A stretch of 64,000 nt of DNA from IMG/VR virus record IMGVR_UViG_3300034102_003113; one strand, written 5' to 3'. Origin of the DNA: a virus. The stretch's first letter is position 1. Each line of letters begins with the position of its first letter. The notes below the pieces were generated by a model, which did not search any database, had not been told where the DNA came from, and saw only the letters and a program-made list of their open reading frames with translations. Made by a program: the position numbers and the translations under genes. Below, piece after piece: positions 36,541-63,351 of the stretch.

Positions 36541-37008
36541 ATGCTACCCCAGCAAGATATGAATTTCGACTACGCCAGGTTTATCGATGAAGGCTATGCT
36601 TCTCAGCAAAAGTACGCTAAAGCTGCAGGACAACCTGGCCCTTTGGATGAAAACCTCTCCAGTAATGATCGCCATGCAAAGGTGATTGAGTACATGGGCC
36701 ATCTCATCGAAGAGACTATTGAGGCCCGAGTGTATGTCCCACGGCGTAGTTGGAAAACCAATGAACCCTCGTTCCTTGACTCCAATAAAAACCGTGAGGA
36801 GTTTATCGCTGAATGCTTTGATATTCTTCTCTTCCACCGGGCAATTTTGGCTTATGCCGGAGTTACTGGGGATGAATTTGCTGAGGTTGCAGCACGGAAA
36901 CTCGACTATAACTCAAAACGTAAAGATCACATCACCAATGGCACCGAGTCCGCTCCTGTTGATCCGTCTAAAGAACTTCAAGGAGACTGCCCTTCAGCTT
37001 CTTTCTAA
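36541..37008 (+). CDS. All-alpha dNTP pyrophosphatase (dimeric dUTPase / T4 gp56 dCTPase-like)
   Basis: EETIE...SWK...EEFIAECFD pattern (ExxE...ExxD). Confidence 0.75.
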   Translation: MLPQQDMNFDYARFIDEGYASQQKYAKAAGQPGPLDENLSSNDRHAKVIEYMGHLIEETIEARVYVPRRSWKTNEPSFLDSNKNREEFIAECFDILLFHRAILAYAGVTGDEFAEVAARKLDYNSKRKDHITNGTESAPVDPSKELQGDCPSASF

Positions 37009-37016
37009 ATGATACA

Positions 37017-37193
37017 ATGAACAAACGACCGATTCAAAGACTCCTACAGGATACCTCTGAAGACCGGTGTTTAAATTGTGACGGGAGGGGGTTTGAGATC
37101 ATCACTCATACCTCTCCTGATGGATACGTAGAACCAAACGAGGTACAGGAATGTGAACATTGCAATAGCACTGGAAAACGCATGGGGAATTAA
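37017..37193 (+). CDS. Small zinc-finger protein (58 aa, DnaJ-type CxxCxGxG; not in ORF track)
   Basis: CLNCDGRG...CEHCNSTG. Confidence 0.65.
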   Translation: MNKRPIQRLLQDTSEDRCLNCDGRGFEIITHTSPDGYVEPNEVQECEHCNSTGKRMGN

Positions 37194-37650
37194 ACCGGAG
37201 TCTTCGGTTTTAGTTCTTAATGCCACCTATGAACCGATAAACATCACAAGTTGGAAAAGGGCTATCATCCTTCTTGTAAAGGAGAAAGCTACGATTATCT
37301 CGGAGAAGGTAATCCGTCTTATCGACTATGTTCGTGTTCCTGTATCCAAAATTATGGAAGCAAAGCCATCTCGGGCGATGATTTACAAACGAGATGGGCA
37401 TAAATGCCAATATTGTGGCTCTACGAGGGGATTGACAATTGACCATGTAATTCCTAAGAGTCGTGGAGGTGGGGATACTTGGCAGAATTTAGTTGTTGCG
37501 TGTAGCAAATGTAATACATTTAAGAGCAATAAACTCTTAGAGCATACAGGAATGAAACTTGTACGAAAACCCACAGCCCCGGTAAATAAGATCATCTTCG
37601 TGATTTCCCAAACTAAAGACCCAGAATGGCAACAGTATAATTATATTTGA
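37153..37650 (+). CDS. HNH endonuclease (McrA-like)
   Basis: VLVLNATYEP, RDGHKCQYCG, TIDHVIPKSRGG, NLVVACSKCN. Confidence 0.92.
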   Translation: MNIAIALENAWGIKPESSVLVLNATYEPINITSWKRAIILLVKEKATIISEKVIRLIDYVRVPVSKIMEAKPSRAMIYKRDGHKCQYCGSTRGLTIDHVIPKSRGGGDTWQNLVVACSKCNTFKSNKLLEHTGMKLVRKPTAPVNKIIFVISQTKDPEWQQYNYI

Positions 37651-37660
37651 TTAAAGTTCG

Positions 37661-37691
37661 GAGGGGAGTTAAATCTTCCCTCTTTTTTTTA
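37661..37691 (+). terminator. Rho-independent terminator
   Basis: GAGGGGAG/CTTCCCTC stem + long T tract. Confidence 0.75.
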
Positions 37692-37699
37692 TTGTCATC

Positions 37700-38266
37700 A
37701 TGGACTTTTATTTCTCTTTTGGTAAAAAGAAACCATCAGAAAGATCAATGATTATCTCCGCAGCATTTATCTGGGGAATCTTTGAGGCCATAGTAGATCC
37801 ATTACTTGATTTCATCAATCGTAAGGTTTTAAATAGTTTTGATGGAGAGAAATTAAAGTTGGTATTTGATGAGTTAGATATTTTTTGGCTTAGAAATGGG
37901 CAAAATAAGCATTATTCTAACTCTGACATTCGTCTTATTATATGTTTATTTTTGAGATCAGTAGAAGATAACCAACTAACTAGAAAAGAACTCTTAGCGC
38001 TCACTAACTTTATCCAGAGACATTGGGTAGCATCTGAAGCTTTAAAGAAGACTTTTACTCAAACTGATGAAGTTATCGAGGCGCATGTGGAATCCACTGT
38101 GGATCAGGCCATCGAGTTATATGAAAAAACATATATGGAAAAACCACAAACCCCAGAAGAGTTTGTGGCCAGTACTGCAGAGATAATATTCCATGAACCA
38201 GACGGGAGTAAGGCTCAAGAACTGCTTGGTGGGATGATGGAGATAAAGAATAAGTTTTTTTACTAA
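37700..38266 (+). CDS. Hypothetical protein
   Basis: 188 aa ORF, no recognised motif. Confidence 0.6.
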   Translation: MDFYFSFGKKKPSERSMIISAAFIWGIFEAIVDPLLDFINRKVLNSFDGEKLKLVFDELDIFWLRNGQNKHYSNSDIRLIICLFLRSVEDNQLTRKELLALTNFIQRHWVASEALKKTFTQTDEVIEAHVESTVDQAIELYEKTYMEKPQTPEEFVASTAEIIFHEPDGSKAQELLGGMMEIKNKFFY

Positions 38267-39477
38267 ATAACCCAAAGAGGCTTCATAGGATCCTTGGAAG
38301 CAGTGTTATTTTGTCTCAGGATTTTATATGTCCCATCATCCTGGGTCTCTGGACTGACCCACTCTCTATTACCATCTAGTGCCTCAGAGATTTCTTTAAT
38401 CCAGTCTCCGGCTGTACATGCCGGGACGTTCTGGCAGATCACGTTACTATGCTTTGTAGGAATGTGTACTTTAGCTGCGTAATCGTCAGGGAATCCCATT
38501 AAGGCCAACCCTTCCGCGATAGTCAACCATCTATCTTCGTAGGGATGCATGAGATAAGGAAGTGACTTCCACATTAGACTCTGTGTTCTATACCAGGATA
38601 GTTTAATACTTCCATCCATAATATTTTTTCCAGCTTTTTTCTTTTCAAGCGTGTAATTCAACCAGCGATTAGCCTTCTCATCCTTGACAACTCTCGCCGC
38701 TTCTTCTAACCACCCAGAGTCGTAGATTACGTTCCAGGCAGAGGTCATTCTCTGAGATGCAACATTGGAGAGAATATCTTGCTTAGTAGAACCAACATAC
38801 TTCGACTCAATAAACTGCCATAATGGATCTTCACTTGGTTTTGTTCTTGACTTATTAACAGATTCTGACTCAGCAAACTTACCTTCTTTGAGGAATTGAT
38901 GAAAAGGAACAAAATCTTTTTTAATTGGTGAAAGTACTGGGACTTTATCTCCCTTCCATAAGAAAAAGAAACTTCTTGTCCGTTCTTGTGGCACTCCATG
39001 ATTAATCGAGGTGGTCTTTACCAGACTCATCGTATAACCATGACCCTGAGCTAGAGTGTTAATTCTTTCCGCAAACTCCTCGCCCATCTTAGAGTAAAGA
39101 GCAGGAGCATTCTCTACCATAATTGCCTTAGGTTTAATCTTTGACATAGCAAATTCTGCTGCATTGTACATATGTACGTTGCTAGGAGCTGAGCATCCCC
39201 GCGGATTATTTGCTTTATCCCCAGATGTGGTATTTGCCATAGACAACCCAGCACAAGGTGGAAGTGATGTAATGATGTCTACATAGGCATTAGGAAACTG
39301 CTCCTCCTCAAAGTCATAGAAAGGCACTTTGTTCATGTATTGAAGACAATACTGATCATTGGCTCCAAACACACTCCCCCATGAGGCGATCCATTCAGGA
39401 TCTGATCCTAATGCCATAGAAGTTCCAACAACACTTCCTCCCACTAGAGGGATGATATGCCCATGAGTATACGCCAT
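38263..39477 (-). CDS. C5-cytosine DNA methyltransferase-fold protein with atypical SAM-binding motifs
   Basis: PPC (IV), ENAP (VI), PQERTR (VIII), RWLT..E...LMGFP (IX). Minus strand: CAT at 39475-77, CTA at 38263-65; the track's + label is wrong. Confidence 0.85.
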   Translation of the reverse strand: MAYTHGHIIPLVGGSVVGTSMALGSDPEWIASWGSVFGANDQYCLQYMNKVPFYDFEEEQFPNAYVDIITSLPPCAGLSMANTTSGDKANNPRGCSAPSNVHMYNAAEFAMSKIKPKAIMVENAPALYSKMGEEFAERINTLAQGHGYTMSLVKTTSINHGVPQERTRSFFFLWKGDKVPVLSPIKKDFVPFHQFLKEGKFAESESVNKSRTKPSEDPLWQFIESKYVGSTKQDILSNVASQRMTSAWNVIYDSGWLEEAARVVKDEKANRWLNYTLEKKKAGKNIMDGSIKLSWYRTQSLMWKSLPYLMHPYEDRWLTIAEGLALMGFPDDYAAKVHIPTKHSNVICQNVPACTAGDWIKEISEALDGNREWVSPETQDDGTYKILRQNNTASKDPMKPLWVI

Positions 39478-39524
39478 GTGATATAATTAATTAAGTCTAG
39501 AGTTCCTTAGACTGAAAATCCCTG

Positions 39525-39532
39525 GTTTAAAG
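39525..39532 (+). promoter_or_regulatory. Putative late promoter GTTTAAAG
   Basis: Exact motif ~23 nt upstream of ATG 39556. Confidence 0.65.
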
Positions 39533-39555
39533 ACTATGGAGGATAGATTTTAGCA

Positions 39556-39855
39556 ATGGATAAGAGACTTTCTACGCAAGATTACATGGAGATCCTGAAA
39601 AAGAAACGTCAGGATGGAACATATGACTACGCTGATCGAGTCTTTTATAAGGGCAAAGTAATGCTTAAATGCCCTCCAGGAGCTACTAAACTTGGCAATA
39701 CCTGCGTCCCATCAGCCGCTGCTACTGCAAAGGGTGCTGGTCCAGGAAAAACATGGCAAAAAGATCTCGGAGGCATTAATCCTCAACAAGTTCAACAATT
39801 AGGTGTCGCAAAAACATCCAAAGATATAAAAAAAGCTAGAGAAAAGAATGGATGA
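39556..39855 (+). CDS. Small basic protein with CPPG..CVP module
   Basis: 99 aa, late motif upstream. Confidence 0.6.
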   Translation: MDKRLSTQDYMEILKKKRQDGTYDYADRVFYKGKVMLKCPPGATKLGNTCVPSAAATAKGAGPGKTWQKDLGGINPQQVQQLGVAKTSKDIKKAREKNG

Positions 39856-41002
39856 TCCGCTTATCATCACAAACGGAAAGTTTTCTATCTCAATTGAGAC
39901 AAAAAAATCTCTAAAGAATGTAAACTTTGGAGCAGGATCTATTACTCTACGCCCAGGTAAACCCAAAGAAGCTACCCAGTGGTACGACGTAAATAACAGA
40001 CAGGTATATAAACGTCCGAGCGGGCACTGGAGTTATACTAATCCAGAACAATCTAAAAAAAGCCTAGAGAAGAGAATGTCTAGCGCCTATGACCGTAATG
40101 CCGGATCATCAAGTGCGCAAAAACCCTCTGCTCAAGGGACAAAAACATCAGCGCACACTCTCTCCGAGAATCTAATCAAGGATTTATTACTGACTAAGAA
40201 CGATAGTTCTAAAGTTAAACTTAAGGGGATTTTTGAATCCGAGATTAATAAATTAGAATCGGATGATAAAACAAAAAGAGACTGGATTGACTCCACTTAC
40301 AATTCAGCACAAGCGATTCAAACTTACTTAGATAGTAGTGGAGAACAAATAAAAAACATAGATTATGTCGGGAACAAAACTCAATCAGAAGAGTTTTACA
40401 CAGCGGATATAATCATACAAACAGATAAAAGAAAATTAGGAGTTTCCTTAAAGAAAACTGGAAACGCTAGGATGTATAATACATCTATTAACAAAGATAA
40501 TAGAGTCCAAGAGTTCTTTGCTGCCCAAGATGATCTGTTAAAGAGATTTGTACCTCAAGGGACAAAGTTAAATAGAAAGCTCAGGAAAGAAATTTTTAGT
40601 AATAACAAAAATCAAAAAATAGACGGATTGACTCTAGAGAAACATCTCTCTAATCTAAGAGTGGATCTACAAAAAAATTTAAAAGATGACATTGACAATG
40701 TACTAGGCTCTAGTAACATAGTAGGTAAAGTACAAAAGATATTCAATGCCATTAATAAAAACACACTAATACTCGTGTCCAATAAAGATGTGATTGACTC
40801 TTCTAATTTAAAAAAATTAGGGCAAAATCACCTCGAACCAAGACACGCTAACGACGGATCTAATTTTATATATTACGGGAATACGGCCGTAGCTAGATTA
40901 GGTATCCGTCAGGACGGAATGGGTTATGGAACTTCGATAAAACTAGAAGCCAATTTCACCCAACAATTTATTCGTGAATTAACAAAGAATACCAATGATT
41001 GA
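39848..41002 (+). CDS. Putative PD-(D/E)xK endonuclease
   Basis: HTLSE helix, then TADIII...GVSLKK core; Lys/Asn-rich, AT-rich gene. Confidence 0.6.
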   Translation: MDDPLIITNGKFSISIETKKSLKNVNFGAGSITLRPGKPKEATQWYDVNNRQVYKRPSGHWSYTNPEQSKKSLEKRMSSAYDRNAGSSSAQKPSAQGTKTSAHTLSENLIKDLLLTKNDSSKVKLKGIFESEINKLESDDKTKRDWIDSTYNSAQAIQTYLDSSGEQIKNIDYVGNKTQSEEFYTADIIIQTDKRKLGVSLKKTGNARMYNTSINKDNRVQEFFAAQDDLLKRFVPQGTKLNRKLRKEIFSNNKNQKIDGLTLEKHLSNLRVDLQKNLKDDIDNVLGSSNIVGKVQKIFNAINKNTLILVSNKDVIDSSNLKKLGQNHLEPRHANDGSNFIYYGNTAVARLGIRQDGMGYGTSIKLEANFTQQFIRELTKNTND

Positions 41003-41237
41003 AAGAATCTCAAAACCAATTCGCTTTGATAAGCAAATCCCCTGGCTCATTGTAGCTCGCGATGGAGAAAAGTTTTTTGTCGCTAAAGAAGATGTAATCG
41101 CCGAGGACCCTAGCATGGAACTCATTGAGATGGGAAGTCGCTCATTACTTCAGTGGGCAATGGAGTATGATTATCCTCTTCGCAAGTTTGTAAAACTCCA
41201 GAAGATCCTTGTTAAGAAGTATTTCGACATTGAATGA
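40995..41237 (+). CDS. Hypothetical protein
   Basis: 80 aa, coupled to upstream ORF. Confidence 0.6.
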   Translation: MIERISKPIRFDKQIPWLIVARDGEKFFVAKEDVIAEDPSMELIEMGSRSLLQWAMEYDYPLRKFVKLQKILVKKYFDIE

Positions 41238-41250
41238 CTAGTTAGTTTCC

Positions 41251-41261
41251 TGTGATAGAAT
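41251..41261 (+). promoter_or_regulatory. Extended -10 promoter (TGTGATAGAAT)
   Basis: Upstream of ThyA-fold gene. Confidence 0.65.
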
Positions 41262-41290
41262 GATCATCTAATCATTCACCACGGGAGATT

Positions 41291-42127
41291 ATGACTCTGT
41301 CATTTGATTATCAGTACATTAAGATTGCAAAAGAGATCCTGACCGAAGGTACCGAGGTTATCGGCCGAAACAATCTCCGCTATAAGCAGATGTTCGGTCA
41401 GACAATCAAGATCGATCTTCGGGAGGGATTTCCTGCTCTCACGATCCGTAAGATGCCCGTACGTAATCTCTTCCGAGAGTTTATGTGGGATGTCAATGGA
41501 GACTATCAAGTAACCAATCTCGGTCCTGCCAAGCACTTCTGGGACTTTTTGGCCGATACCGAAGGCCGTCTTGCAGGGTCTTACGGACGTTCCTGGCGAT
41601 CCTGGCCTCAAGTCTGCCCAGAGCAAAATATGCAATGGGAGAAATTCCGTAATGAACCATTCGACCAACTCAAGTGGATCTGGGAACAACTTCGCACAAA
41701 TCCAACCAATCGCCAACTTGTTCTTCAGACTTTCAATCCTGCTTACGATTCTCTTCACTGTCCTCCTTGTCATCCTAACCTCACTTTTTCTAGTGATGGG
41801 ACTTATCTTGATTTGATGGTTAATGCTCGGAGTAATGACATGGCCACAGGAGTCCCTCTGGATATGTTCCGTTATGGCCTCCTTACTACAAAGATGGCGC
41901 AGGATGCCAATCTTACTCCTCGATTTGTGATGTTCGCCTCGGCCAATAACCACATCTATTCTCAGAATGAGATGGCCATTGAATCGATCATCAAGAACGT
42001 GCCCATGGCACCGTGTGATGTCTGGATCAATAATGAGAAGTCACTTTTCGATCTTGATCCTGAGGCTGATTTTGAACTGATTGATTACTTCTCCCATCCC
42101 TCAGCTCGTATGGAGGTGGCTAACTGA
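41291..42127 (+). CDS. Thymidylate-synthase-fold enzyme, probably dCMP methylase/hydroxymethylase
   Basis: DLREGFP, YG..WR.W, DQL, PPCH, RSND, HIY; Asp (41861-63) at the E. coli ThyA Asn177 position. Confidence 0.8.
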   Translation: MTLSFDYQYIKIAKEILTEGTEVIGRNNLRYKQMFGQTIKIDLREGFPALTIRKMPVRNLFREFMWDVNGDYQVTNLGPAKHFWDFLADTEGRLAGSYGRSWRSWPQVCPEQNMQWEKFRNEPFDQLKWIWEQLRTNPTNRQLVLQTFNPAYDSLHCPPCHPNLTFSSDGTYLDLMVNARSNDMATGVPLDMFRYGLLTTKMAQDANLTPRFVMFASANNHIYSQNEMAIESIIKNVPMAPCDVWINNEKSLFDLDPEADFELIDYFSHPSARMEVAN

Positions 42128-43404
42128 TGCCTATTCCCTCCTACGATTACACTTCATCCCTACTCGAAGATGTATTTGAGCCCGTCATCGATCCTTATTG
42201 TCCGGTTGTCGTTATTGATTTCAAAGTATACGCTCATGCCATTAATAAGTACGCTGAGTTGGCTTCGGAAGTTGCTAGGAATGATGATGAGTTAAAGACA
42301 ATCATGAAGGCCATGTGGGCCTATAAACTCAACCGGGGACCTGACATGCTCCAGTCATTCCCCTTTGTTGGATTGATTGTAGATGACCTTAAAGGCCAAT
42401 TTGAGCCAGAGTTTTCTGAGGCATCTACCACTGGAGTTGGGTATTGGAGGCATATCGAAGCTCATAAGATTAATCTTGCAGAGTACAAGGGTGGTAGAGG
42501 AGAAAAAACGCCGTTCTTCTACCTAACAGAGGCCGCCGGGTATGAATACATTCTCTCCCAAGGCTCCACCTTCCCCTACTTTGCTAAGGAGTTCTTTGAG
42601 GCAGATGATATTGCAGGACATATCTGCAGACTGAAAAGAAAAGCCAAAAAGAACTCTGTATTAGCCCAAAGACAGATCATCCTCTCCACGGTGGATGGGG
42701 ACTGGCAAGGACTTGTATCCGACTCTCATGATATTGTCTGGGCCAATACCGGCCCATGGCTCCCTCGCCTCCGTTCTGAGACAGAAGTTTGCGATTACTA
42801 TCTCCGCAAAGACAAACTAATTATCGACTCCGCCTATGGTTGCTATACTGTAAAGGAGAAGGTCGGTGATGCCGGAGATAACCTTATGCCTGGAACACCA
42901 CTGCGATTTTTTGACTTATACAATGAAGATTCTGAATGGCGTTTTACAAAAGAAGACACCCAAGCCATATCAAAAGTACTTAACTCTGACACTCCTTCAA
43001 ACAGGGAAGATCACCTACAATCCGCAAAAAAATTTCTCTCCTCTAAGGGACTTTTCATGCCAGAGATTGGTGAGACCCAGTATGATGAAAAACAATTCTT
43101 CTTCTCAAAAGCAAAGAAGATTCGCGTTGAAAACTCTCATCCAGAGTTGCGTGGGAGGAACAAAACTTTATGCCTTGGCGTCGCGGATCAAGCAGAAGTT
43201 TTTAACAAATGCAAGGAATTAGCGCTCCAACAAGAGGAGTTAAAGCAACAGATCAAAGAACATACTGACCAGGTTGCCAAATGCAAGGAAGAGGAGGATA
43301 AAAAATGCGTCAAAGACCTCAGGTTAACAATCAAATCCCTCAAGGAACTCCGAGATTCAGTTGTAAAGGACTTTAAAGAACTCGTTAATCTCCTAGACGA
43401 CTGA
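42127..43404 (+). CDS. 5'-3' exonuclease (FEN/T4 RNase H-like) with C-terminal coiled coil
   Basis: YWRH..YKGGR, EADDIAG, STVDGDWQ, GDAGDN. Confidence 0.85.
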   Translation: MPIPSYDYTSSLLEDVFEPVIDPYCPVVVIDFKVYAHAINKYAELASEVARNDDELKTIMKAMWAYKLNRGPDMLQSFPFVGLIVDDLKGQFEPEFSEASTTGVGYWRHIEAHKINLAEYKGGRGEKTPFFYLTEAAGYEYILSQGSTFPYFAKEFFEADDIAGHICRLKRKAKKNSVLAQRQIILSTVDGDWQGLVSDSHDIVWANTGPWLPRLRSETEVCDYYLRKDKLIIDSAYGCYTVKEKVGDAGDNLMPGTPLRFFDLYNEDSEWRFTKEDTQAISKVLNSDTPSNREDHLQSAKKFLSSKGLFMPEIGETQYDEKQFFFSKAKKIRVENSHPELRGRNKTLCLGVADQAEVFNKCKELALQQEELKQQIKEHTDQVAKCKEEEDKKCVKDLRLTIKSLKELRDSVVKDFKELVNLLDD

Positions 43405-43411
43405 CCAAAAC

Positions 43412-43451
43412 TATCCTATAATAGTCCCAGAGACCTGGGACTTTTTTCTTT
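43412..43451 (+). promoter_or_regulatory. -10 box overlapping a terminator hairpin
   Basis: TATAAT 43417-22, then AGTCCCAG/CTGGGACT stem + T tract. Confidence 0.55.
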
Positions 43452-53036: not shown

Positions 53037-55424
53037 ATGCCTTTAAAACAAGGATCCTCGGACAAGGTAGTCCAAGATAATATTCGCTGCATCTTAGACA
53101 AAGATGGGTGCGGATATGATCCGCCGTATAAAGACCCGGCTAGAGAGCAATATACTCCAGCCCAGGCTGCGGCTATTGCCTATGCAAAAGCAGGGCGGAG
53201 GAACAACACGGGTAATAAAACCTCTGCATCTAAAAAAACTAAGAGTGTAAAAACCCAAGAGATCAAGACGCCTGAAGCGAAGAAGGAAGAGCCAAAGTCT
53301 CCCGCTCAATCCGCAAAACCTGAAACTGAAACTGATACAAAAAAACCTGGTTCTGATATCCAGATCCCTGAAGGGTGGACAACACAAAAACCCGGAGGGG
53401 ACACTAGTACCTCAAAAAAGAACCAACCGCCTGAGAAGGAGAAGGACGAACTTTCTCCTGAGGCGGACAAGCAGATGCTTGACGAGGTGATGGAAGGGTA
53501 TAAGATGAAGTGGGGCAACAGTGCCTCATTACTTGGCGATGCGTGGGATACGTATGATGCTAAGCAAAAGAAAAAGTTCCTTGCTAATGCAAAGAAGATA
53601 AAAGCAGAGGAACAGGCCAAACAGAATAAAGAAGATAAAAATAGTCCGCCTGCTTCTACGCCCGCGCCCGCACCTGCATCTGCACCAACCACGGAAGCGA
53701 CTCCTCAGTCAGCACCGACTCCAACTCCTACTACTGGAGGTGGAGATGCTGGGGATGCTGATAAGAAGCCTCAGGTTGCTGATGGATGGAAATCAAAAGA
53801 TGATGGTTGGACAACTCATCTAAAGCCAAAGTTTGATGGGGATAATATTAACTACCAGAATAAAGTATATAAACCAACAAAGACTTTACCAGGATCTACC
53901 AATCCTAAACTCTACTCAGACGAAGAAGGTAAACCCAAGTTTGTTGTGAAAGAGGGTGGTGCTAAAGGCCAGAATGATGCGGAATACGCTGCTAACCAGG
54001 TCTATGGCATTCTCTCCCCGCATCTTCCCACCGGTGCCATAAAATCAAGACTCATTGATGGTAAGTTGGTTAATGACTTTATGCCCAACTCTAAAACTGT
54101 TAATGATCTCAGCGAGGATGAGTTAAATAGATACGATGTAAACTCTAAAGTAAGAAAGTCTCTCGCTGCTGACGCGTTAGTCGCCAACTGGGACTATGCT
54201 GGACTTGCAAATGATAATATGATGGTCGATGGCCAGGGTAGAGTACTAAGAATCGACTCTGGTGGGACATTTAATTATAGAGCACAGGGTGAACAGAAAG
54301 ACTTTGATTCGGTGCCTATGGAGATGTGGACACTCCGCTCCAGCACCCAAGGCAAACAATTCTGGGGTAATGCTCAAGAAGAAGATTATGAAAATCTCTG
54401 GAGAGACCAAGTTGCTTATATTGGTCTAGAAGGAAATAAACTTAAGAGCACCATAGCAAATTCAAATCTACCGTCAGAAGTCAAAGAAGCTTTTGGTAAA
54501 AGGGTGGATATTCTTTCAATCGCTGCCCAAGAGGCGAACAATATCGCCAAAAGAGACGGTGTCTCATGGAAGGGAGTAGATCAAGTGATGGAGAGAGCGT
54601 TTAGATACGCCTCCGCTATGAATTCAAAAAATCCTAACTGGGGTGATCTTGTAAGAAACAAAATTCGTGGTGATTTAGAGAAAGCGTTCCCTGAGCAAGC
54701 TCCAAAACTTGACTTCAATCTCCCCACCAACTCTAACAAGTATAACGAGTCAAATTACAAACAAACTGTTAAGGCAGTAGATAATCAATTAAATAGTTCC
54801 GATGCTGGGTATTATGGAGGAGATCCAGATGCTGTAAAACAAATCTCCCCAGAAGCAAAATACGCCTTGAGGGAGTATAGTGGATCTCTATACCAGGATT
54901 TAAATGCCATGGTAAGAGGAAAGACAAAATCTTTCAATGATAATGATATAAAATTCTTCAGTCAGATTGTTGATGTAATGGATGAAAGTTTAGATCAAAT
55001 ACCTGATCATCCAAATGTAGGTATGTTCTATAGAATGAATAAGATTTCTAATAAATATACCGACGACGTTGATGCGCTTAATAACTTAAAACCTGGAGAT
55101 ACATATGTATCTAAAGGATACTCTTCTTACACAGATGACCATGAAGGAGATGAGAATAACAGAAATGAGATACTTGATTCTTTCTATCATGGTAGTACAT
55201 CTAAGACAAACTTTATAACCATTTACCAAGGAAAGAATATAAAAAATATCGCTCCTCTATCAGATATTCAAAACGAGAGAGAATCACTCATGCAAAGAGA
55301 TAAAAACCTTAAAGTTGCAAGTATTAAGGAAGAATCGATTAAAGATTGGCCAAATATCAGCTGGGGAGGCAATGAAACTATGACCGGTAAGATTAAAGTT
55401 ATCTATCTTACAGATGCTGATTGA
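53037..55424 (+). CDS. Multidomain effector: disordered leader + PI3/4K/HipA-like kinase + VIP2/Alt-like ADP-ribosyltransferase
   Basis: Kinase: GST loop, FVVK, AEYAA, DALVANWD..N, RIDSG. ART: Y...Y..LN..R, FYR, GYSSYT, QNERE. Confidence 0.8.
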   Translation: MPLKQGSSDKVVQDNIRCILDKDGCGYDPPYKDPAREQYTPAQAAAIAYAKAGRRNNTGNKTSASKKTKSVKTQEIKTPEAKKEEPKSPAQSAKPETETDTKKPGSDIQIPEGWTTQKPGGDTSTSKKNQPPEKEKDELSPEADKQMLDEVMEGYKMKWGNSASLLGDAWDTYDAKQKKKFLANAKKIKAEEQAKQNKEDKNSPPASTPAPAPASAPTTEATPQSAPTPTPTTGGGDAGDADKKPQVADGWKSKDDGWTTHLKPKFDGDNINYQNKVYKPTKTLPGSTNPKLYSDEEGKPKFVVKEGGAKGQNDAEYAANQVYGILSPHLPTGAIKSRLIDGKLVNDFMPNSKTVNDLSEDELNRYDVNSKVRKSLAADALVANWDYAGLANDNMMVDGQGRVLRIDSGGTFNYRAQGEQKDFDSVPMEMWTLRSSTQGKQFWGNAQEEDYENLWRDQVAYIGLEGNKLKSTIANSNLPSEVKEAFGKRVDILSIAAQEANNIAKRDGVSWKGVDQVMERAFRYASAMNSKNPNWGDLVRNKIRGDLEKAFPEQAPKLDFNLPTNSNKYNESNYKQTVKAVDNQLNSSDAGYYGGDPDAVKQISPEAKYALREYSGSLYQDLNAMVRGKTKSFNDNDIKFFSQIVDVMDESLDQIPDHPNVGMFYRMNKISNKYTDDVDALNNLKPGDTYVSKGYSSYTDDHEGDENNRNEILDSFYHGSTSKTNFITIYQGKNIKNIAPLSDIQNERESLMQRDKNLKVASIKEESIKDWPNISWGGNETMTGKIKVIYLTDAD

Positions 55425-55586: not shown

Positions 55587-55594
55587 GTTTAAAG
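55587..55594 (+). promoter_or_regulatory. Putative late promoter GTTTAAAG
   Basis: Exact motif ~22 nt upstream of ATG 55617. Confidence 0.65.
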
Positions 55595-55616
55595 GACTAT
55601 ATACATAGTCCCTATC

Positions 55617-56261: not shown

Positions 56262-56279
56262 TGTGCCAGATGGTTGGTC
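56217..56279 (+). repeat. 17-bp direct repeat GTGCCAGATGGTTGGTC encoding VPDGWS in two overlapping genes
   Basis: Copies at 56217-56233 and 56263-56279. Confidence 0.85.
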
Positions 56280-56727: not shown

Positions 56728-56780
56728 GGGATCCCGAACCAAATATATCACTTAGGGGGGTTTACAGATCCCCCTTCGTC

Positions 56781-56788
56781 GTTTAAAG
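56781..56788 (+). promoter_or_regulatory. Putative late promoter GTTTAAAG
   Basis: Exact motif ~31 nt upstream of lysis operon. Confidence 0.65.
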
Positions 56789-56819
56789 TAGGATAAGTCA
56801 ATTTATCATAGGAGTTTCT

Positions 56820-57233
56820 ATGACCACAGTATTCTTTTACGTTTTCGTATTCTCTTCCTGGGGCTTAGGACTTTTGTCTTGGATGGTTGCCTTAAGCGAT
56901 TTTATGACTCGCAGGGATCTGGAAAGCAAGGAAAAGTTTCTAGAGATAACCCAGAAAAAAGCACTCTTCAATCGCTTTAATGATATCAGTGGGATTCAGA
57001 TCCCCAGTCTAACTCAATCAGAAAAAACTAAGAAGGCCCCATGGGGCAGAGTTGGAGAAGCTGAAGAAAGCCCAGAACTTATCCCAGAAAAGATCAAAGA
57101 ACTAATGAAGTCATCTCCCAATCACCCTGAGGTGGAAGAGATCGATGGTACAGATCAGATTCTAGGCGTTAAGTTTGAAGCACGTGATTATCCCCCTGTG
57201 TTTGGCGATGGAGACGGAGAAGACGACGAATGA
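56820..57233 (+). CDS. Membrane protein, candidate holin/lysis accessory
   Basis: Single N-terminal hydrophobic segment; coupled to endolysin. Confidence 0.45.
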   Translation: MTTVFFYVFVFSSWGLGLLSWMVALSDFMTRRDLESKEKFLEITQKKALFNRFNDISGIQIPSLTQSEKTKKAPWGRVGEAEESPELIPEKIKELMKSSPNHPEVEEIDGTDQILGVKFEARDYPPVFGDGDGEDDE

Positions 57234-58504
57234 AAGCACCAATTTGTGGCATTGAGCTTATCAAAAGGTTTGAGGGTTGCCATCTTGAGGCGTATCCCGA
57301 TCCTCTCACAAAGGCAAAACCTTACACCATAGGCTGGGGATCTACGAAGAAAAAAGACGGGACTCCCTTCGCCCTCGGAGAAGTAATCACGCAGCAAGAA
57401 GCAGATGAACTCCTTCTTTATCAACTAGAGGCAGGATATCTGCCACCTCTTGCATCTATTCCATACTTCAATGAGATGTCTCCAGAACAAGTTGGAGCAT
57501 TATTGAGTTTTGCTTATAACCTAGGTGCAAGATTCTATGGTTCAGAAGGATTTGAAACAATATCCAGAAGACTTAGAAACCGCGAATGGGAACTTATCCC
57601 AGATGCATTGTTCCTCTATAGAAACCCAGGAACGGACGTAGAGGAAGGACTTAAGAGACGTAGAGTGGCCGAAGGGGCCCTCTGGTCTAAAGGTTTAAAA
57701 AAGGATAAAATGGAAAAACAACAAATAGTTGCTTTACAGGACACTATACTTAAAAAAGAACCTCTCCAATCCTACCAACTCGACTTCAACCTTAAAAGAG
57801 TGGTGCAGAAAGGAAAGGGTTACCAGGTAATTGACATTACCGATGAGGGTATACACTCTAAAGTGACCTTGGATTATGGTGCTGGAGTATGGTATATCTA
57901 TAATCCGCATTGGAAAGTACAAGGTGTCCATGATGTAGTATATAAGCAGGGAAGCCATCGCATCCTCCAGGTAAAATACTTCCCCCAGAGAGACAGTCGC
58001 ACTACTCATGCCCATCGCATGTGCTTCTCTAGCTCTTGCTCGATGATGGCCGACTTCCTTAACCCTAAGGCAATTGATGTTGCCGAACAGGAAGACGACT
58101 TCTACATGAAGAACTACGTGTTTAGGTACGGAGATACTACTAGTTCCGATGCTCAAATCAAAGCTCTCCGTGATGTTGGAATTAAGGCATCTTTCCGTCA
58201 GAACCTCTCACAGGTTGATATTGAAGCACAGATAGATAAAGGAATCCCTGTACCCGTAGGTATTCTCCATCATGGCCACGTTTCCGCCCCTAGAGGTGGT
58301 GGGCATTGGGTGTGTATTATTGGTTATGATAAGATAAACGCTCAATATATCGTCCATGACCCATATGGTGAGTTAGATCTTACAAATGGTGGGTATTATG
58401 GATCCACTAATGGTGCTTCTCAGAGATACTCCTATTCAAACTTTAATAAGCGCTGGATGGCAGAAGGAATGGGTAGTGGTTGGGGGATCATTGCTGAGAG
58501 GTGA
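57230..58504 (+). CDS. Endolysin: GH24 lysozyme + C39-like cysteine peptidase
   Basis: IKRFEG..AYPD..TIGWG, GLKRRRVAE; QRD..CFSSSC, GGGHW, HDPYG. Confidence 0.9.
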   Translation: MKAPICGIELIKRFEGCHLEAYPDPLTKAKPYTIGWGSTKKKDGTPFALGEVITQQEADELLLYQLEAGYLPPLASIPYFNEMSPEQVGALLSFAYNLGARFYGSEGFETISRRLRNREWELIPDALFLYRNPGTDVEEGLKRRRVAEGALWSKGLKKDKMEKQQIVALQDTILKKEPLQSYQLDFNLKRVVQKGKGYQVIDITDEGIHSKVTLDYGAGVWYIYNPHWKVQGVHDVVYKQGSHRILQVKYFPQRDSRTTHAHRMCFSSSCSMMADFLNPKAIDVAEQEDDFYMKNYVFRYGDTTSSDAQIKALRDVGIKASFRQNLSQVDIEAQIDKGIPVPVGILHHGHVSAPRGGGHWVCIIGYDKINAQYIVHDPYGELDLTNGGYYGSTNGASQRYSYSNFNKRWMAEGMGSGWGIIAER

Positions 58505-58656
58505 GTGAGGAGTTAAAAACATCACTTGATATGCTTTATAGGGCTCGGTGGAATGTCCCCCGGGCCGCTTCTCATTGCGGGATCCCGAACCAAGAGATGA
58601 TAGAGGCATTCAACAAATGGTTCCTAGAAGAGGAAAGGCCATATTACAAACTGTAA
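58501..58656 (+). CDS. Small conserved cyanophage-type protein (51 aa, not in ORF track)
   Basis: GTGA overlap; ML..ARWNVPRAASHCG...EM...F, HTH-like. Confidence 0.6.
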   Translation: MSEELKTSLDMLYRARWNVPRAASHCGIPNQEMIEAFNKWFLEEERPYYKL

Positions 58657-58660
58657 CAAG

Positions 58661-58683
58661 GGGAGGTCGAGAGGCCTCCCTTT
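58661..58683 (+). terminator. Hairpin terminator
   Basis: GGGAGGTC-GAGA-GGCCTCCC + TTT. Confidence 0.65.
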
Positions 58684-58717
58684 CGAGTATGATTAGGGGG
58701 TACTGATACAGGACCCC

Positions 58718-59713
58718 ATGGCAACCATCTCCGAGGTGCAGTCGGCACTCACAAAGATCATCGATAAATCAATCCCCCACTCCGTGTTTCTATGGGGTCC
58801 TCCTGGTGTAGGTAAATCCTCCATTGTTAAAAAGATCGCCCAAGACAATGACCTCGAGCTTATCGACCTTCGCATCTCGCAACTCGCCCCTACCGACATC
58901 CGCGGTCTCCCGTACGTCGAAGATGGGTTGGCTAAGTTCGCCCCTCCGTCGTTCCTTCCGCAGGAAGGCCGAGGTATTCTCTTTGTTGATGAGTTTAACA
59001 TGGCATCTCCCTCGATGATGGGAATTGCCCAGCAACTCATCCTTGACCGTCAGGTGGGGGATTATAAAGTCCCCGAAGGTTGGTTTATTATTGCTGCCGG
59101 TAATCGTGCCCAGGACCGTGCTGCGGTGTCTCAAATGCCCGCCCCGGTGGCCAATCGCTTCATCCACTTTGAGGTGGAATCGGATCTCTCCTCGTGGAAG
59201 GAGTACGCCATTACTAAGGGAATGAATGAGCAGATTCTCTCATTCCTTAACTTTCGCTCCCCGCTTCTCTTCGAGTTCAATAAGAACGCCACTGCATGGC
59301 CTTCGCCTCGGAGTTGGGAATTTGCTAACTCTTTACTCGATGTGGGTCTAGATATCTCCTCGGCAGTTGGCGAAGGAACTTCCGCAGAGTTCTATGCCTA
59401 CCAAACTATCTACTCCAAGCTCCCAGACATCCAGGCCATCCTATCTGGTGAAGATGTAGAGGTACCTAAGGAACCTTCTCTGATGTATGCTGTCTGTGGA
59501 GCTATTATCTCCCGAGCCAAATCCGCCCAAGACTTCTATAACGGGGTTAAGTGGCTCATCAAGGGAACTACTGAAGATTATGTCGGCCTCTTCATGGGAG
59601 ATGCTATGATCTCTCTCAAGGCAAATAACCTCCAGGGTACATTTGTGAAACTCATTGCCAAAGATCCCCAGGTCAAAGCCTTCATCACCAAATATCAGGA
59701 GCTCCTGCGATGA
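58718..59713 (+). CDS. MoxR-like AAA+ ATPase
   Basis: WGPPGVGKS, LFVDE, AAGNR, ANRF, PSPRSW. Confidence 0.9.
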   Translation: MATISEVQSALTKIIDKSIPHSVFLWGPPGVGKSSIVKKIAQDNDLELIDLRISQLAPTDIRGLPYVEDGLAKFAPPSFLPQEGRGILFVDEFNMASPSMMGIAQQLILDRQVGDYKVPEGWFIIAAGNRAQDRAAVSQMPAPVANRFIHFEVESDLSSWKEYAITKGMNEQILSFLNFRSPLLFEFNKNATAWPSPRSWEFANSLLDVGLDISSAVGEGTSAEFYAYQTIYSKLPDIQAILSGEDVEVPKEPSLMYAVCGAIISRAKSAQDFYNGVKWLIKGTTEDYVGLFMGDAMISLKANNLQGTFVKLIAKDPQVKAFITKYQELLR

Positions 59714-60876
59714 GCATTGAAGAGAACCTTGTTAGGTCAAGGGTGAAGCTTCTAAAACAATCACCCTTCTTCGGAACCTTACTGCTCAATACCAAGTACA
59801 AGATCACTGAGCATATCTCCACTGCCGCCACTGATGGTGATGTGCTGATGCTCAATGAGGAGTTCATGGAGTCACAGAGTCCTGAGCACTTCCGCTCTAT
59901 CCTCCTCCATGAGGTACTTCACATGGCACTGGAACATATCGAGAGAATGAAGGATGTATTTAAGATCGATCCTTTAACTGCTAACTTGGCCGCAGATATT
60001 GTTGTTAATGGTATCATCCAAGACAATAAACTCCCATTACCAGAGGAAGCTATCACCGATAATGATCTGAAGCATCTCAGTGTACGTGAGATCTATAGTA
60101 TCCTAAAGCAAAAGCAGAGAGAAGATCCAGATCATCTGAATAAGAAGTATGGTGATGGGGCAAGTGATATCAACCAATGCCTCCAACCAGGCGGAGATGG
60201 CAATAAACCCCCGTCTTCATCTCAGTCTCAACCAGGCGGAGATGGTAAAACGAACTGGAAGGACGTATTGAATAAGGCAATGACTATTGCCCGGAGTAAG
60301 AACGCTGGGCCTATTGGGGCAGGGATGAGTAGGATCTTCAAAGAATTCCTAGAACCCACAATCAACTGGAAGGATGTTCTATATAAATATATTACTGCTG
60401 CTCGCTCGGACTTCGAAGGTTTTGATCGTCGTATGATCCACCAAGGATTCTATCTCGATGACCTTGGCGGCGGAAAGATCAAAGTGGCTCTATTCATGGA
60501 TACTTCTGGGTCTGTTGACGAGGAACTTCTATCTGAGTTTTTTGCTGAGGTAAAGTTTGCCATCAATGCGTTTCCCAATACCGAAGGTGAGATGTGGTAC
60601 TTCGATACTGAACTCTACCCAGAGGGAGATATTCGTGATATTGATAAGCCTCAGATCAAAGGAGGTGGTGGAACATCATTCGCCCCAGTGATGAAGAAAC
60701 TCCAAGAGATCCATGAGGAGGATAGTTCTGCTCAAACATTAGGAATTATCTTCACCGATGGTTATGCACAAATGAATATCCCAGAACCTGACTGTGGAGT
60801 ATTGTGGTGTATTAGTCCTGGTGGAGTAGATGATAACTACTTTAGTTTTGGGGACGTAGTTAGGATCCTAAAGTGA
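59710..60876 (+). CDS. DUF2201-type metallopeptidase + VWA domain protein
   Basis: TAATDG, HEVLH, DTSGS (MIDAS), GGGGT, FTDG. Confidence 0.9.
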   Translation: MSIEENLVRSRVKLLKQSPFFGTLLLNTKYKITEHISTAATDGDVLMLNEEFMESQSPEHFRSILLHEVLHMALEHIERMKDVFKIDPLTANLAADIVVNGIIQDNKLPLPEEAITDNDLKHLSVREIYSILKQKQREDPDHLNKKYGDGASDINQCLQPGGDGNKPPSSSQSQPGGDGKTNWKDVLNKAMTIARSKNAGPIGAGMSRIFKEFLEPTINWKDVLYKYITAARSDFEGFDRRMIHQGFYLDDLGGGKIKVALFMDTSGSVDEELLSEFFAEVKFAINAFPNTEGEMWYFDTELYPEGDIRDIDKPQIKGGGGTSFAPVMKKLQEIHEEDSSAQTLGIIFTDGYAQMNIPEPDCGVLWCISPGGVDDNYFSFGDVVRILK

Positions 60877-60878
60877 TA

Positions 60879-60886
60879 GTTTAAAG
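60879..60886 (+). promoter_or_regulatory. Putative late promoter GTTTAAAG
   Basis: Exact motif ~19 nt upstream of ATG 60906. Confidence 0.65.
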
Positions 60887-60905
60887 TCTAATATACTAGA
60901 TTCTT

Positions 60906-61118
60906 ATGGCAGATCCTGGATTTGAAAATGGCTGGGAAGTACCCGGCCATGATTACCAAGCGCACAGTGGGGCCACTGCTTCTCGTGGTCCTACTCAGGT
61001 TATTTACAAGAAGGGAGGAGCAAGTGGTAAAACGGTTGCTACCGAAACCATCACCTATGACGTGAATAATAATATTGCTACCAGGTCAATCGCTTGGGAA
61101 CCTGACATTCTCATGTGA
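60906..61118 (+). CDS. Small putative virion protein
   Basis: YKKGGASGKTVAT.TITYD..NN module. Confidence 0.6.
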   Translation: MADPGFENGWEVPGHDYQAHSGATASRGPTQVIYKKGGASGKTVATETITYDVNNNIATRSIAWEPDILM

Positions 61119-61127
61119 GTATAAGTC

Positions 61128-62528
61128 ATGCCATTTTACAGTAATCCATTAGAAACCCATCCTGTTGATGAGGCTATCAGCGTAGCCAATAACCGGATGT
61201 TTTACGTACATCAGCTCGCTGATACACGTGGGATAATTATCGATCCGTATTCATTGTCGAGTTCGTCGTCTTCAGCCTCGGCAGGGTTTATGGACGCTTT
61301 CGGTCGGCAGAGAATCTCCCAGCCACATACCATTGGGGACTACAAGCACCTCTATGCACTGGATCCCAACTTTCTAGATAGCCTCAATGCCGGAGGCGCC
61401 GTGAACTTTAATCCCAACAAAGCCGCGGCTACCCTCTCCACATCCAGTGACCCGACATCCTACGCCATCCACCAAACAAGGTTATATCACCAGTACCAGC
61501 CAGGAAAATCCCAACTTATCCTATCCTCATTTGTCTTTGGCGCTGCCCAGACAAATGTAACCAAACGGACAGGATACTTTGACGATAGAAACGGAATCTA
61601 CTTCGAGCAGACTGGCAATGGCACACTTAACTGGGTGATTAGAAACTATGTCACCGGGTCTCCGGTAGAGACAGGCAGTCGTATCGCTCAGGCGAACTGG
61701 AATGTGGATCGGTGCGATGGCACTGGCCCTAGTGGTTTTAACCTAAACATCACAAAAACCCAACTCGTCTTCATCGACTTTCAATGGCTTGGAGTCGGTA
61801 GAGTTAGATGCGGATTTGTCCACAATGGAGCCATGATTATCGCCCATGAATACTTCCATTCTAATGAGAGAGATGCGGTGTACTTGTCATCTCCGAATCT
61901 ACCTGTGAGATGCGAGATTAGGAATACAGGCACGACGACCGGTGGATCTTTTGACCAGATCTGTTCCACTGTGCAGAGCGAAGGAGGTTACCAGGAGACG
62001 GGTATAGACTGGGAGAGAGCTAATACATCCATGAGGGCCACACCTACTCCGGGTGGATCGCCCCTACCTGTTCTGGCCATACGTCTCAGAAACACGTTTG
62101 GTGGTACACAGAACCGTATGAGCGCTATCCTCACCAATGTGGGGTTATACGTAGAAACCAAACCCGTCCGTTACGAGATTGTTAAGTTGCCTAGTTCTTC
62201 TAGTCTAACAACTACAGATGTCGGTGGGTTAGTCTGGACAAACGTCGATGACAATAGCAGTGGTATTCAGTACTGTGTTAATGCCACCGGGTACGTTACT
62301 ACTGGTTCTTCGGCGCTATTCGGTGGATTCTCTTCTGCTGGCACTTCTCAGAACTCTCGTAGCGAAGTAGGGGCCGGTGGTCTCACTGCCTCTAAGAAGA
62401 ACTTTATCTCGCAGAATTTCGACTCCTCAAACTCAGAGATCTACGCCGTAGTGGTACGCACGATCGGCACTGGGCCTAGTGACTCAGCGTCCGTAGCCTG
62501 CTCACTACAATGGAGAGAGGTCTATTAG
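61128..62528 (+). CDS. Putative virion structural protein (lectin-like beta sandwich)
   Basis: DAFGRQR.S, YQPGKS, IDFQWLGVGRVRCGF, NLPVR.EI, terminal WRE. Confidence 0.65.
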   Translation: MPFYSNPLETHPVDEAISVANNRMFYVHQLADTRGIIIDPYSLSSSSSSASAGFMDAFGRQRISQPHTIGDYKHLYALDPNFLDSLNAGGAVNFNPNKAAATLSTSSDPTSYAIHQTRLYHQYQPGKSQLILSSFVFGAAQTNVTKRTGYFDDRNGIYFEQTGNGTLNWVIRNYVTGSPVETGSRIAQANWNVDRCDGTGPSGFNLNITKTQLVFIDFQWLGVGRVRCGFVHNGAMIIAHEYFHSNERDAVYLSSPNLPVRCEIRNTGTTTGGSFDQICSTVQSEGGYQETGIDWERANTSMRATPTPGGSPLPVLAIRLRNTFGGTQNRMSAILTNVGLYVETKPVRYEIVKLPSSSSLTTTDVGGLVWTNVDDNSSGIQYCVNATGYVTTGSSALFGGFSSAGTSQNSRSEVGAGGLTASKKNFISQNFDSSNSEIYAVVVRTIGTGPSDSASVACSLQWREVY

Positions 62529-62555
62529 GCTTCTCCCTGTACACTACATCAAACT

Positions 62556-62592
62556 TATGATAGAATTGGAGGGACACTGATCCCTCTTTTTT
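62556..62592 (+). promoter_or_regulatory. Extended -10 promoter overlapping a terminator hairpin
   Basis: TATGATAGAAT 62556-66; GAGGGA/TCCCTC stem + T6. Confidence 0.6.
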
Positions 62593-63351
62593 ATGACAAA
62601 CCTGGTCAAGTTGATGTGGGTGACTCCCGAAGCCGAACACCTTATCACCGACATGGCGCGTGTGTCGGCACCAAAGAACCAGGGGAACTATGATACGGCC
62701 TCGCGACTTATCAAGTACCTCATCAAGCATCGCCACTGGAGTCCGTTTGAGATGGCCTCAATGTGCGTGGAGATCAACACTACTCGGGACATTGCCGCCC
62801 AGATCATCCGCCATCGCTCCTTCAGCTTCCAGGAGTTCTCCCAGCGATACGCCGATGTTAAAGATCTTGGCACTATCCCTATCCCCGAACTCCGTCGTCA
62901 AGATACCAAGAACCGCCAGAACTCTATCGCCGATCTTGACCCTGAACTGGTAAGAGCATTCGAGCAGCGTACTAAAATGCTCTTCGCGGAATCCCAAGAA
63001 CTCTACGATGACATGCTTGAGGCAGGAATCGCCAAGGAATCTGCCCGTAAAGTCCTGCCGATGAACTCTCCGAGCCGTATCTATATGACCGGAACCCTGC
63101 GTTCTTGGATGCACTACATCGATCTACGATGCTCCAATGGGACGCAGAAAGAGCATATGGATATTGCCAACGCCATTGCTGATATCTTTGGTGAGCAATT
63201 CCCCTCTATTCAACAGGCACTTTGGGAGATTCAGGGAGAACCTGAACCCCAACCCGAGTCTTACGTTATCTCACCACAGAAAAAAGCCCCCAAGGTATCT
63301 CGGAGGCAGATGGTTAAGATGTGGTTGATGGATAAGATCTTCGGTCTATGA
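62593..63351 (+). CDS. thyX: Flavin-dependent thymidylate synthase
   Basis: HWSPFE, RHRSFSFQEFSQRY, ESARKVLP, LRSWMHY..LR, QKEH. Confidence 0.97.
   Translation: MTNLVKLMWVTPEAEHLITDMARVSAPKNQGNYDTASRLIKYLIKHRHWSPFEMASMCVEINTTRDIAAQIIRHRSFSFQEFSQRYADVKDLGTIPIPELRRQDTKNRQNSIADLDPELVRAFEQRTKMLFAESQELYDDMLEAGIAKESARKVLPMNSPSRIYMTGTLRSWMHYIDLRCSNGTQKEHMDIANAIADIFGEQFPSIQQALWEIQGEPEPQPESYVISPQKKAPKVSRRQMVKMWLMDKIFGL

Follow-up and report, generated by a model that had tools for sequence, protein, structure and literature searches.

A Thymidylate Synthase-Like Protein of TIM5-Like Cyanophages Is Probably a Cytosine Nucleotide-Modifying Enzyme

The Locus and Its Lineage

The DNA analyzed here, a stretch of 64,000 nucleotides from IMG/VR virus record IMGVR_UViG_3300034102_003113 (the window), comes from a TIM5-like cyanophage (Aurunvirus) and is syntenic with the genome of S-TIM5. 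It encodes a protein of the thymidylate synthase (TS) fold, P0001, together with a ThyX, the flavin-dependent thymidylate synthase, an apparent redundancy. We conclude that P0001 is very probably not a thymidylate synthase but an enzyme that modifies C5 of deoxycytidine monophosphate (dCMP). Members of the genus Aurunvirus infect marine Synechococcus. Gene order around the ThyA-like gene follows that of S-TIM5 at positions of roughly 100-163 kb, and the protein is about 80% identical to its counterparts in S-TIM5, S-TIM54, S-TIM61, and S-TIM66; in the closest IMG/VR contigs identity at this protein rises to 92-93%. The gene and its most informative codons are as follows.

41291-42127, + strand: predicted TS-fold dCMP C5-modifying enzyme (P0001, 278 amino acids), named 'ThyA' in the S-TIM5 annotation; full-length PF00303 domain (2e-54)
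41759-41770, + strand: codons of Cys157-Pro-Pro-Cys160; Cys160 is the catalytic nucleophile and Cys157 stands at the L143 position
41861-41863, + strand: codon GAT of Asp191, at the position of Asn177 of E. coli ThyA, the determinant of pyrimidine specificity; placed by three separate alignments

Active Site of the TS-Fold Enzyme

The translated open reading frame (ORF) at 41291-42127 contains RSNDMATGVPLDMFRY, and the alignments bear out the initial annotation in reading its codon 191 as a change from Asn177 to Asp. P0001 was aligned with E. coli ThyA, the phage Xp12 enzyme, T4 gp42, and gp319 of Bacillus phage G; residue numbers without a P0001 equivalent are those of E. coli. The match to PF00303 and the alignment of all catalytic residues place the protein in the TS fold. 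Retained are R21, E58, W80, Y94, R126, C146, and H147, as well as R166, S167, D169 (Asp183), H207, and Y209; the substitutions are N177D, Q165A (Ala179), W83L, L143C, R127Q, and F176L. In TS, Gln165 orients Asn177, and the C-terminal tail seals the active site for hydride transfer. P0001 has Asp191 and Ala179 instead of this uracil-recognizing pair, and its Asp at the Asn177 equivalent is the feature by which T4-type dCMP hydroxymethylases recognize cytosine. The hydrophobic seal is altered in part: the tail is kept and conserved (..MEVAN), yet Trp83 has become Leu and Leu143 has become Cys.

These residues can be read against published rules. The N177D change switches TS from deoxyuridine monophosphate (dUMP) to dCMP and is the standard predictor of cytosine-modifying TS homologs (PMC8670742; bioRxiv 10.1101/2024.12.05.627091; PMC13326640), and position 147 ranks next in discriminating power (PMC8670742; bioRxiv 10.1101/2024.12.05.627091). 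An acidic residue at 143 (Asp145 in T4) activates the water that yields the hydroxymethyl group (PMC6400193), and Asp or Glu there is the mark of a hydroxymethylase (PMC6400193; PMC13326640). Replacing this Asp in T4 (D145N) abolishes activity, and gp42 has no counterpart of the C-terminal tail of TS (PMC6400193). D169N, finally, marks the flavin-dependent 5-hydroxy-dCMP synthases (PMC13326640). P0001 retains Asp183 and does not have this last mark, which sets it apart from the RB69 gp48 type, and at the three positions that characterize the Xp12-type enzyme it agrees with that type: D191 (Asp177), a nonacidic C157 (143), and D183 (Asp169). Our literature search, which did not reach the original S-TIM5 paper (PNAS 2012), found no link between the S-TIM5 'ThyA' and cytosine modification.

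Distribution of the Aspartate

The aspartate is a property of a whole clade. Marine metagenomes yielded 89 close homologs that cover the site, and 88 of them have Asp at the Asn177 position, the sole Asn belonging to an outlier of 28% identity. In a tree built from the matches of a search of 1.84 billion cluster representatives, the TIM5-type sequences (26 representatives of 50%-identity clusters) are monophyletic with support of 0.89, and T4 gp42 and the Xp12 enzyme both branch outside them. Every clade member with a residue at the column has Asp177 (one of the 26 is gapped there), and 25 retain Asp169. The majority carry Cys143, His147, and a small residue at 165, and position 143 is never acidic; F62D, S180R, and D205N are further changes that are fixed in the clade and specific to it. 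The canonical representatives have Asn177 without exception (113 of 113), and nearly all have Leu143 and Gln165.

Distant clade members lie mostly on short contigs. A kinase is found in their vicinity, and in two unrelated phage contigs nucleoside monophosphate (NMP) or nucleoside kinases lie near the clade member; on these mostly short contigs no recognizable glycosyltransferase or dihydrofolate reductase (DHFR) was found within 10 kb. A 447-amino-acid relative considered as a possible TS-DHFR fusion was rejected as such, its N-terminus being an HNH/NUMOD4 segment. Two architectures among the metagenomic TS relatives deserve record: P0096 has an HNH/NUMOD4 segment attached N-terminally, and P0164 (504 amino acids) joins an Asp177/Pro147 TS homolog to a C-terminal LOG/SLOG (Lysine_decarbox) domain, an unusual arrangement for a dCMP-type TS.

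Partner Enzymes and Their Promoter Box

Further genes of nucleotide metabolism are encoded in the window.

7124-7687, + strand: thymidylate kinase-fold P-loop NMP kinase, with the N-terminal P-loop GADRVGKST
32735-33730, + strand: NrdB, ribonucleotide reductase beta subunit (NCBIfam NF007186, 1e-53), syntenic with S-TIM5 NrdB
34589-36505, + strand: ribonucleotide reductase alpha subunit (NCBIfam NF006577, 4e-184)
36541-37008, + strand: MazG-like all-alpha nucleoside triphosphate (NTP) pyrophosphohydrolase, a candidate dCTPase, 35 nucleotides downstream of nrdA
62593-63351, + strand: ThyX (PF02511, 2e-47, 162 bits; TIGR02170, 168 bits against a cutoff of 88)

The initial annotation had called ThyX complete, and it is; it carries the RHRSFSFQEFSQRY motif (RHRSFSFQEFS). 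ThyX is also found in S-TIM5 and in relatives G002 and G003, and the contigs of G001 and G004, judged by position, should end short of thyX.

The pyrophosphatase had been described as similar to T4 gp56 or dUTPase. By sequence the protein is weakly PRA-PH/MazG-like (PF01503, E 0.005, below cutoff; phrog_12184, 2e-5), and its EExxE...ExxD metal-binding motifs are invariant (E57, E58, E61, E91, and D94). The best full-length match of its predicted model (pLDDT 94) is the dCTPase DCTPP1 of mouse and human, followed by MazG-like enzymes, with modest scores (Foldseek probability 1.0, E 0.05; VIA Z 7.5, 111 of 113 residues aligned). Pairwise comparison with gp56 detected no similarity (BLASTP E of 7 or worse), and a profile search against PDB sequences returned nothing. 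The protein is a candidate dCTPase and may be a functional analogue of gp56. The annotation of a deoxynucleotide kinase at 7124 is upheld by the P-loop and by a predicted model (pLDDT 96) whose 40 best Foldseek matches are mostly thymidylate kinases (E 1e-5, TM 0.5-0.57); its matches at the sequence level are weak. This protein is a candidate kinase for modified dCMP and a possible functional analogue of T4 gp1.

These genes share a promoter-like box, represented ahead of the ThyA-like gene by the following element.

41253-41261, + strand: extended -10-like box TGATAGAAT, matching the motif TGATAKAAT

TGATAKAAT occurs ten times in the window, always on the + strand, against 2.1 expected, a count that none of 100 shuffles reached. 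Copies lie 10-30 nucleotides upstream of the genes for the kinase, NrdB, the pyrophosphatase, the ThyA-like protein, and ThyX, the same box as that at 41253 recurring at 7090, 32694, 36522, and 62558; nrdA is preceded by the variant TGATAAAAT, and the kinase start codon ATG at 7124 agrees with the spacing of its box. The motif looks like an extended -10 element. The initial annotation had placed these genes in one early promoter class; the common box confirms the grouping at the level of a motif, and early timing would be a further supposition. A second repeated element, GTTTAAAG, is present in 14 copies against 2.8 expected (none of 100 shuffles reached 14), including sites at 31027, 32127, 39525, 46631, 55587, 56781, and 60879 on the + strand and at 5762, 6615, 7002, and 22284 on the - strand. 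Most copies lie immediately upstream of structural or unknown genes and are oriented toward them; the element is a candidate late-promoter box separate from the TGATAKAAT set.

Glucosyltransferase, Deaminase, and Methyltransferase

Relatives of the window encode a homolog of the T4 DNA alpha-glucosyltransferase (AGT). The S-TIM5 protein matches Pfam AGT with 37 bits against a cutoff of 25, with the HDH motif aligned, and its only sequence relatives in the PDB are structures of the T4 enzyme (phmmer 2e-14, 1y6f). Its homology to T4 a-gt takes in both domains, the tblastn alignment (8e-12) spanning 86% of the protein. All four isolates (S-TIM5, S-TIM54, S-TIM61, and S-TIM66) have the gene, as do the two IMG/VR genomes whose sequence spans the gyrase-AGT-psbA interval; the nearest long relative of the window starts inside psbA and is therefore uninformative on this point. 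Outside the TIM5 lineage the AGT family is almost confined to T4-like phages that contain 5-hydroxymethylcytosine (hmC). A T4-type alpha-glucosyltransferase requires a hydroxyl acceptor.

Each TIM5-like genome has exactly one TS-family gene; a second, gp42-like TS gene was looked for and none was found. Oxidation of 5-methylcytosine (5mC) to hmC was also considered and rejected as a core feature of the lineage, a 2-oxoglutarate-Fe(II) oxygenase being present in just one of five TIM5-like genomes and no TET/JBP match having been found in S-TIM5, the only genome searched for that family. With a single TS gene, no TET/JBP in S-TIM5, and no conserved 2-oxoglutarate oxygenase, nothing but the Asp-type enzyme is in evidence to provide the glucosyltransferase with an acceptor. 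A dCMP deaminase is encoded in S-TIM5, about 90 kb from the TS gene, and in four of five IMG/VR relatives. In the window itself, tblastn found no AGT, BGT, gp56, deaminase, or DHFR.

Between the nrd genes and the ThyA-like gene lies a DNA methyltransferase-like gene that the initial annotation overlooked, even though it falls inside the interval discussed there.

38263-39477, - strand: C5 cytosine DNA methyltransferase-like protein, P0462 (PF00145, 3e-21; TIGR00675, 59 bits, below cutoff)

Its catalytic motifs are intact (PPCAGLS, ENA, QERTR, and QNVP), and the gene is conserved in S-TIM5.

Folate Economy of Phage and Host

Dihydrofolate is the folate by-product of a reductive methylase; hydroxymethylases and ThyX yield tetrahydrofolate instead. 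FolA-type DHFR (PF00186), to which the search for DHFR was confined, was found neither in S-TIM5 nor in five marine-type Synechococcus genomes, and in none of 81 host-family genomes, which likewise yielded no ThyA (PF00303). These 81 genomes sample the picocyanobacterial family around Synechococcus sp. UW140, and control genomes did give matches. The lack of a FolA-type enzyme in S-TIM5 and in the host-family genomes favors a nonreductive chemistry, without proving it. In Xp12, a DHFR gene adjoins that of the proven methylase. P0001 falls in a separate clade and has no PF00186 partner, and so departs from the Xp12 type in both respects; DHFR is an associated feature of that type and not a strictly defining one.

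Comparison with Known Systems

The hmC pathway of T4 (gp42, gp56, gp1, cd, td, and the alpha- and beta-glucosyltransferases) follows the same logic and uses the same set of roles as the TIM5 lineage. Common to both are an Asp177 enzyme of TS fold, an all-alpha NTP pyrophosphatase, an NMP kinase, a dCMP deaminase, a separate synthase for deoxythymidine monophosphate (dTMP), and a true AGT homolog. The glucosyltransferase alone is recognizably orthologous. The TIM5 enzyme is much nearer to canonical TS and lacks the gp42 signature, and gp42 is not among its best 60 PDB matches; its kinase is Tmk-like, its pyrophosphatase has no pairwise similarity to gp56, its dTMP comes from ThyX and not from a ThyA-type td, and no FolA-type DHFR was found.

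The dCMP methyltransferase of Xp12 resembles the TIM5 enzyme in having Asp177, a nonacidic residue at 143, and Asp169 and in having lost Gln165 and Trp83, and the Xp12 genome, like those of the TIM5 lineage, encodes a dCMP deaminase. The Xp12 enzyme has Asn143, Pro147, and Leu165, and genes for DHFR and the deaminase adjoin that for TS; the TIM5 enzyme, in contrast, has His147, belongs to another clade, lacks a DHFR partner, and is found in genomes that also encode ThyX and a glucosyltransferase. Loss of Gln165 is common to P0001, T4 gp42, and the Xp12 enzyme. Engineered TS mutants (N229D of Lactobacillus casei and N177D of E. coli) share with the TIM5 enzyme a TS-like site, His147, the tail, and the Asp switch, to which the TIM5 clade adds Q165A/G/S, W83L, L143C, R127Q, F176L, F62D, S180R, and D205N.

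Bacillus phage G offers a further parallel: its gp313-gp319 include an AGT homolog, a thymidylate kinase-like gene, a dCMP deaminase, and an Asp177 TS homolog, as in TIM5. The TS homolog of phage G differs from the TIM5 enzyme in bearing the full canonical signature of a hydroxymethylase (Asp143, Thr147, and Asp177) and in having no TS tail; the phage G genes are clustered, whereas their TIM5-like counterparts are dispersed across the genome. The cluster (NC_023719.1, L036/L037, about 225-235 kb) also holds genes for an HAD hydrolase and a glucose-1-phosphate thymidylyltransferase. This cluster predicts glucosylated hmC in the DNA of phage G.

Proposed Pathway and Alternatives

We propose the following route. 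Ribonucleotide reductase would supply dCDP and dCTP, and the MazG-like pyrophosphatase would convert dCTP to dCMP, clearing the dCTP pool. The TS-fold enzyme would bind dCMP through Asp191 and transfer a one-carbon unit of methylene-tetrahydrofolate to C5, thereby opening a prereplicative pathway of cytosine replacement analogous to that of T4 and assembled from nonorthologous parts. Its product would be 5-hydroxymethyl-dCMP, which the thymidylate kinase-fold enzyme would phosphorylate for incorporation and which the homolog of the T4-type alpha-glucosyltransferase would then glucosylate on the DNA; ThyX would make dTMP separately, fed by the dCMP deaminase of the lineage. That dCMP is the substrate of P0001 is strongly indicated. 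The initial annotation had already proposed that P0001 acts on dCMP and that ThyX provides dTMP, and this part of it is well supported by the clade-wide aspartate and by the presence of one TS gene beside ThyX. The dCMP pathway with a pyrophosphatase and an NMP kinase stands as well, with the substrates of those two enzymes presumed from their resemblances. P0001 thus probably begins a T4-style pathway that replaces cytosine in the phage DNA; for glucosylated hmC as the replacement, the likeliest product, we regard the case as evenly balanced.

Several observations weigh against a hydroxymethyl product, or against complete replacement. Cys157, and not Asp or Glu, lies three residues ahead of the catalytic Cys; residues 96-98 are G-S-Y and not S/T-x-Y; and the tail is of TS length and aligns to the E. 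coli C-terminus, where T4-type dCMP hydroxymethylases have none. Taken together, Cys143, Asp169, and the retained tail would lead the published rules to call P0001 a 5-methyl-dCMP synthase. The protein scores above the TIGR03284 cutoff, its best PDB matches are canonical TS, and it is nearer to canonical TS than is either T4 gp42 or the Xp12 enzyme. The N229D and N177D mutants of TS, which P0001 resembles, are methylases, having reportedly been found to methylate dCMP by Liu and Santi and by Hardy and Nalivaika, both in 1992. The glucosyltransferase and deaminase lie outside the window and are attributed to this phage from its relatives, and the literature search found no base composition for the virion DNA of TIM5-like phages. 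Lastly, an apparently active P0462 would be without a substrate if every cytosine were substituted at C5, which argues against complete substitution; replacement may be partial, or P0462 may be directed at host DNA or be active at a different time.

A reductive methyltransferase, operating in the same pathway as in Xp12 or the N177D mutant and leaving 5mC in the DNA with the AGT homolog serving another target or persisting as a relic, is the most serious rival, though we consider it rather unlikely. To the residues just listed it can add His147 and a high similarity to canonical TS, and the rules that tie an acidic 143 to hydroxymethylation and D169N to 5-hydroxylation are consistent with it, the proven Xp12 methylase having Asn143. 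It must be set against the conservation, wherever a TIM5-like genome spans the interval, of an AGT homolog that requires a hydroxyl on its acceptor, with neither TET/JBP in S-TIM5 nor a conserved oxygenase to hydroxylate 5mC; against the lack of FolA-type DHFR in S-TIM5 and the 81 host-family genomes and a clade apart from Xp12; and against the presence of a C5 DNA methyltransferase, which would be pointless in an all-5mC genome. The initial annotation had favored methyl on the ground that the TS-like PPCH is retained. The argument is not supported in that form: the published determinants are positions 143 and 169 and the C-terminal tail, and these do lean toward methyl, but the glucosyltransferase and the folate context oppose it. 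A C5 product different from that of any characterized TS homolog, or another pyrimidine nucleotide as substrate, with the glucosyltransferase decorating whatever is made, seems improbable. The signature of the clade (C143, H147, non-Gln 165, L83, D177, F62D, S180R, and D205N) is unlike that of any characterized class, and TS homologs have lately yielded unexpected chemistry such as that of the flavin-dependent 5-hydroxy-dCMP synthases; E58, D169, and Y94 are nonetheless conventional, the hydroxylase marker D169N is absent, and no extra modification genes are seen adjoining the TS gene.

Two further readings are each very improbable. Simple redundancy, in which a working dUMP-to-dTMP synthase tolerates Asp beside ThyX, accords with the TIGR03284 score and the complete set of catalytic residues, but it would leave Asp fixed throughout the clade with Gln165 lost alongside it, when N-to-D mutants of TS lose their preference for dUMP, ThyX is already at hand, and modification partners are present in the lineage. 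Alternatively, 5-methyl-dCMP might be an intermediate only, deaminated to give a second supply of dTMP. A pathway of this sort was put forward for those Xp12-like phages in which deaminase genes adjoin Asp-type TS genes, and TIM5-like genomes do encode a dCMP deaminase; against it, ThyX supplies dTMP, the deaminase is some 90 kb away, the AGT homolog is left unexplained, and phages with that route carry 5mC in their DNA too.

Returning to the hydroxymethyl product, we suggest tentatively, as a possibility that falls a little short of an even case, that the TIM5 clade is an unrecognized mechanistic class of dCMP hydroxymethylase that keeps the tail and His147, dispenses with the Asp/Glu water activator, and serves phages with glucosylated hmC in their DNA. 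The role of the missing activator may fall to another clade-specific residue, such as Cys157 or Asp67, which lies one helical turn away from the catalytic Glu.

Other Features of the Window

The ribonucleotide reductase alpha subunit (34589-36505, + strand) has a glutaredoxin domain fused at its C-terminus (GRX models, residues 559-622). Two HNH endonuclease genes on the + strand, at 34024-34476 (HNH_3/NUMOD4) and 37153-37650 (HNH/HNH_5), are inserted among the genes of nucleotide metabolism and probably encode homing endonucleases. A 795-amino-acid protein (53037-55424, + strand) ends in an ADP-ribosyltransferase exoenzyme domain (PF03496, 1e-9); it is encoded among virion- or baseplate-like genes and so may be injected to modify the host. 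At 57230-58504 (+ strand) a 424-amino-acid fusion joins a phage lysozyme domain to a C39-like or papain-like peptidase domain. A small protein with the C-terminal domain of Mo-dependent nitrogenase (PF06967, 1e-14) is encoded at 30716-31027 (+ strand); its like recurs at L009:4845-5198 and L010:8164-8628, and an unrelated cyanophage-like contig with a TIM5-clade TS gene of its own has such a protein close to its capsid genes.

Implications

The kind of system described here is already known; the novelty lies in the clade of enzymes, which conflicts with the published signature, and in its setting in a cyanophage with ThyX and no DHFR. TIM5-like phages carry the gene in public records under the label 'ThyA / thymidylate synthase', and P0001 is accepted by one NCBIfam equivalog model, so that automated annotation conceals what is probably a pathway of DNA modification in a cyanophage lineage of global distribution. 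For enzymology, the clade sets the published sequence rules for methyl and hydroxymethyl products against genomic context; if it is indeed a class of hydroxymethylases, present residue rules mislabel all of it as methylases. A fully cytosine-modified genome would bear on the evasion of restriction and CRISPR in Synechococcus, and would affect recovery in metagenomic library preparation and nanopore basecalling, possibly including the reported 'persistent low abundance' of these phages. If the hydroxymethylase class is real, a widespread lineage of marine cyanophages would carry glucosylated hmC in its DNA while growing in a host lacking both ThyA and FolA.

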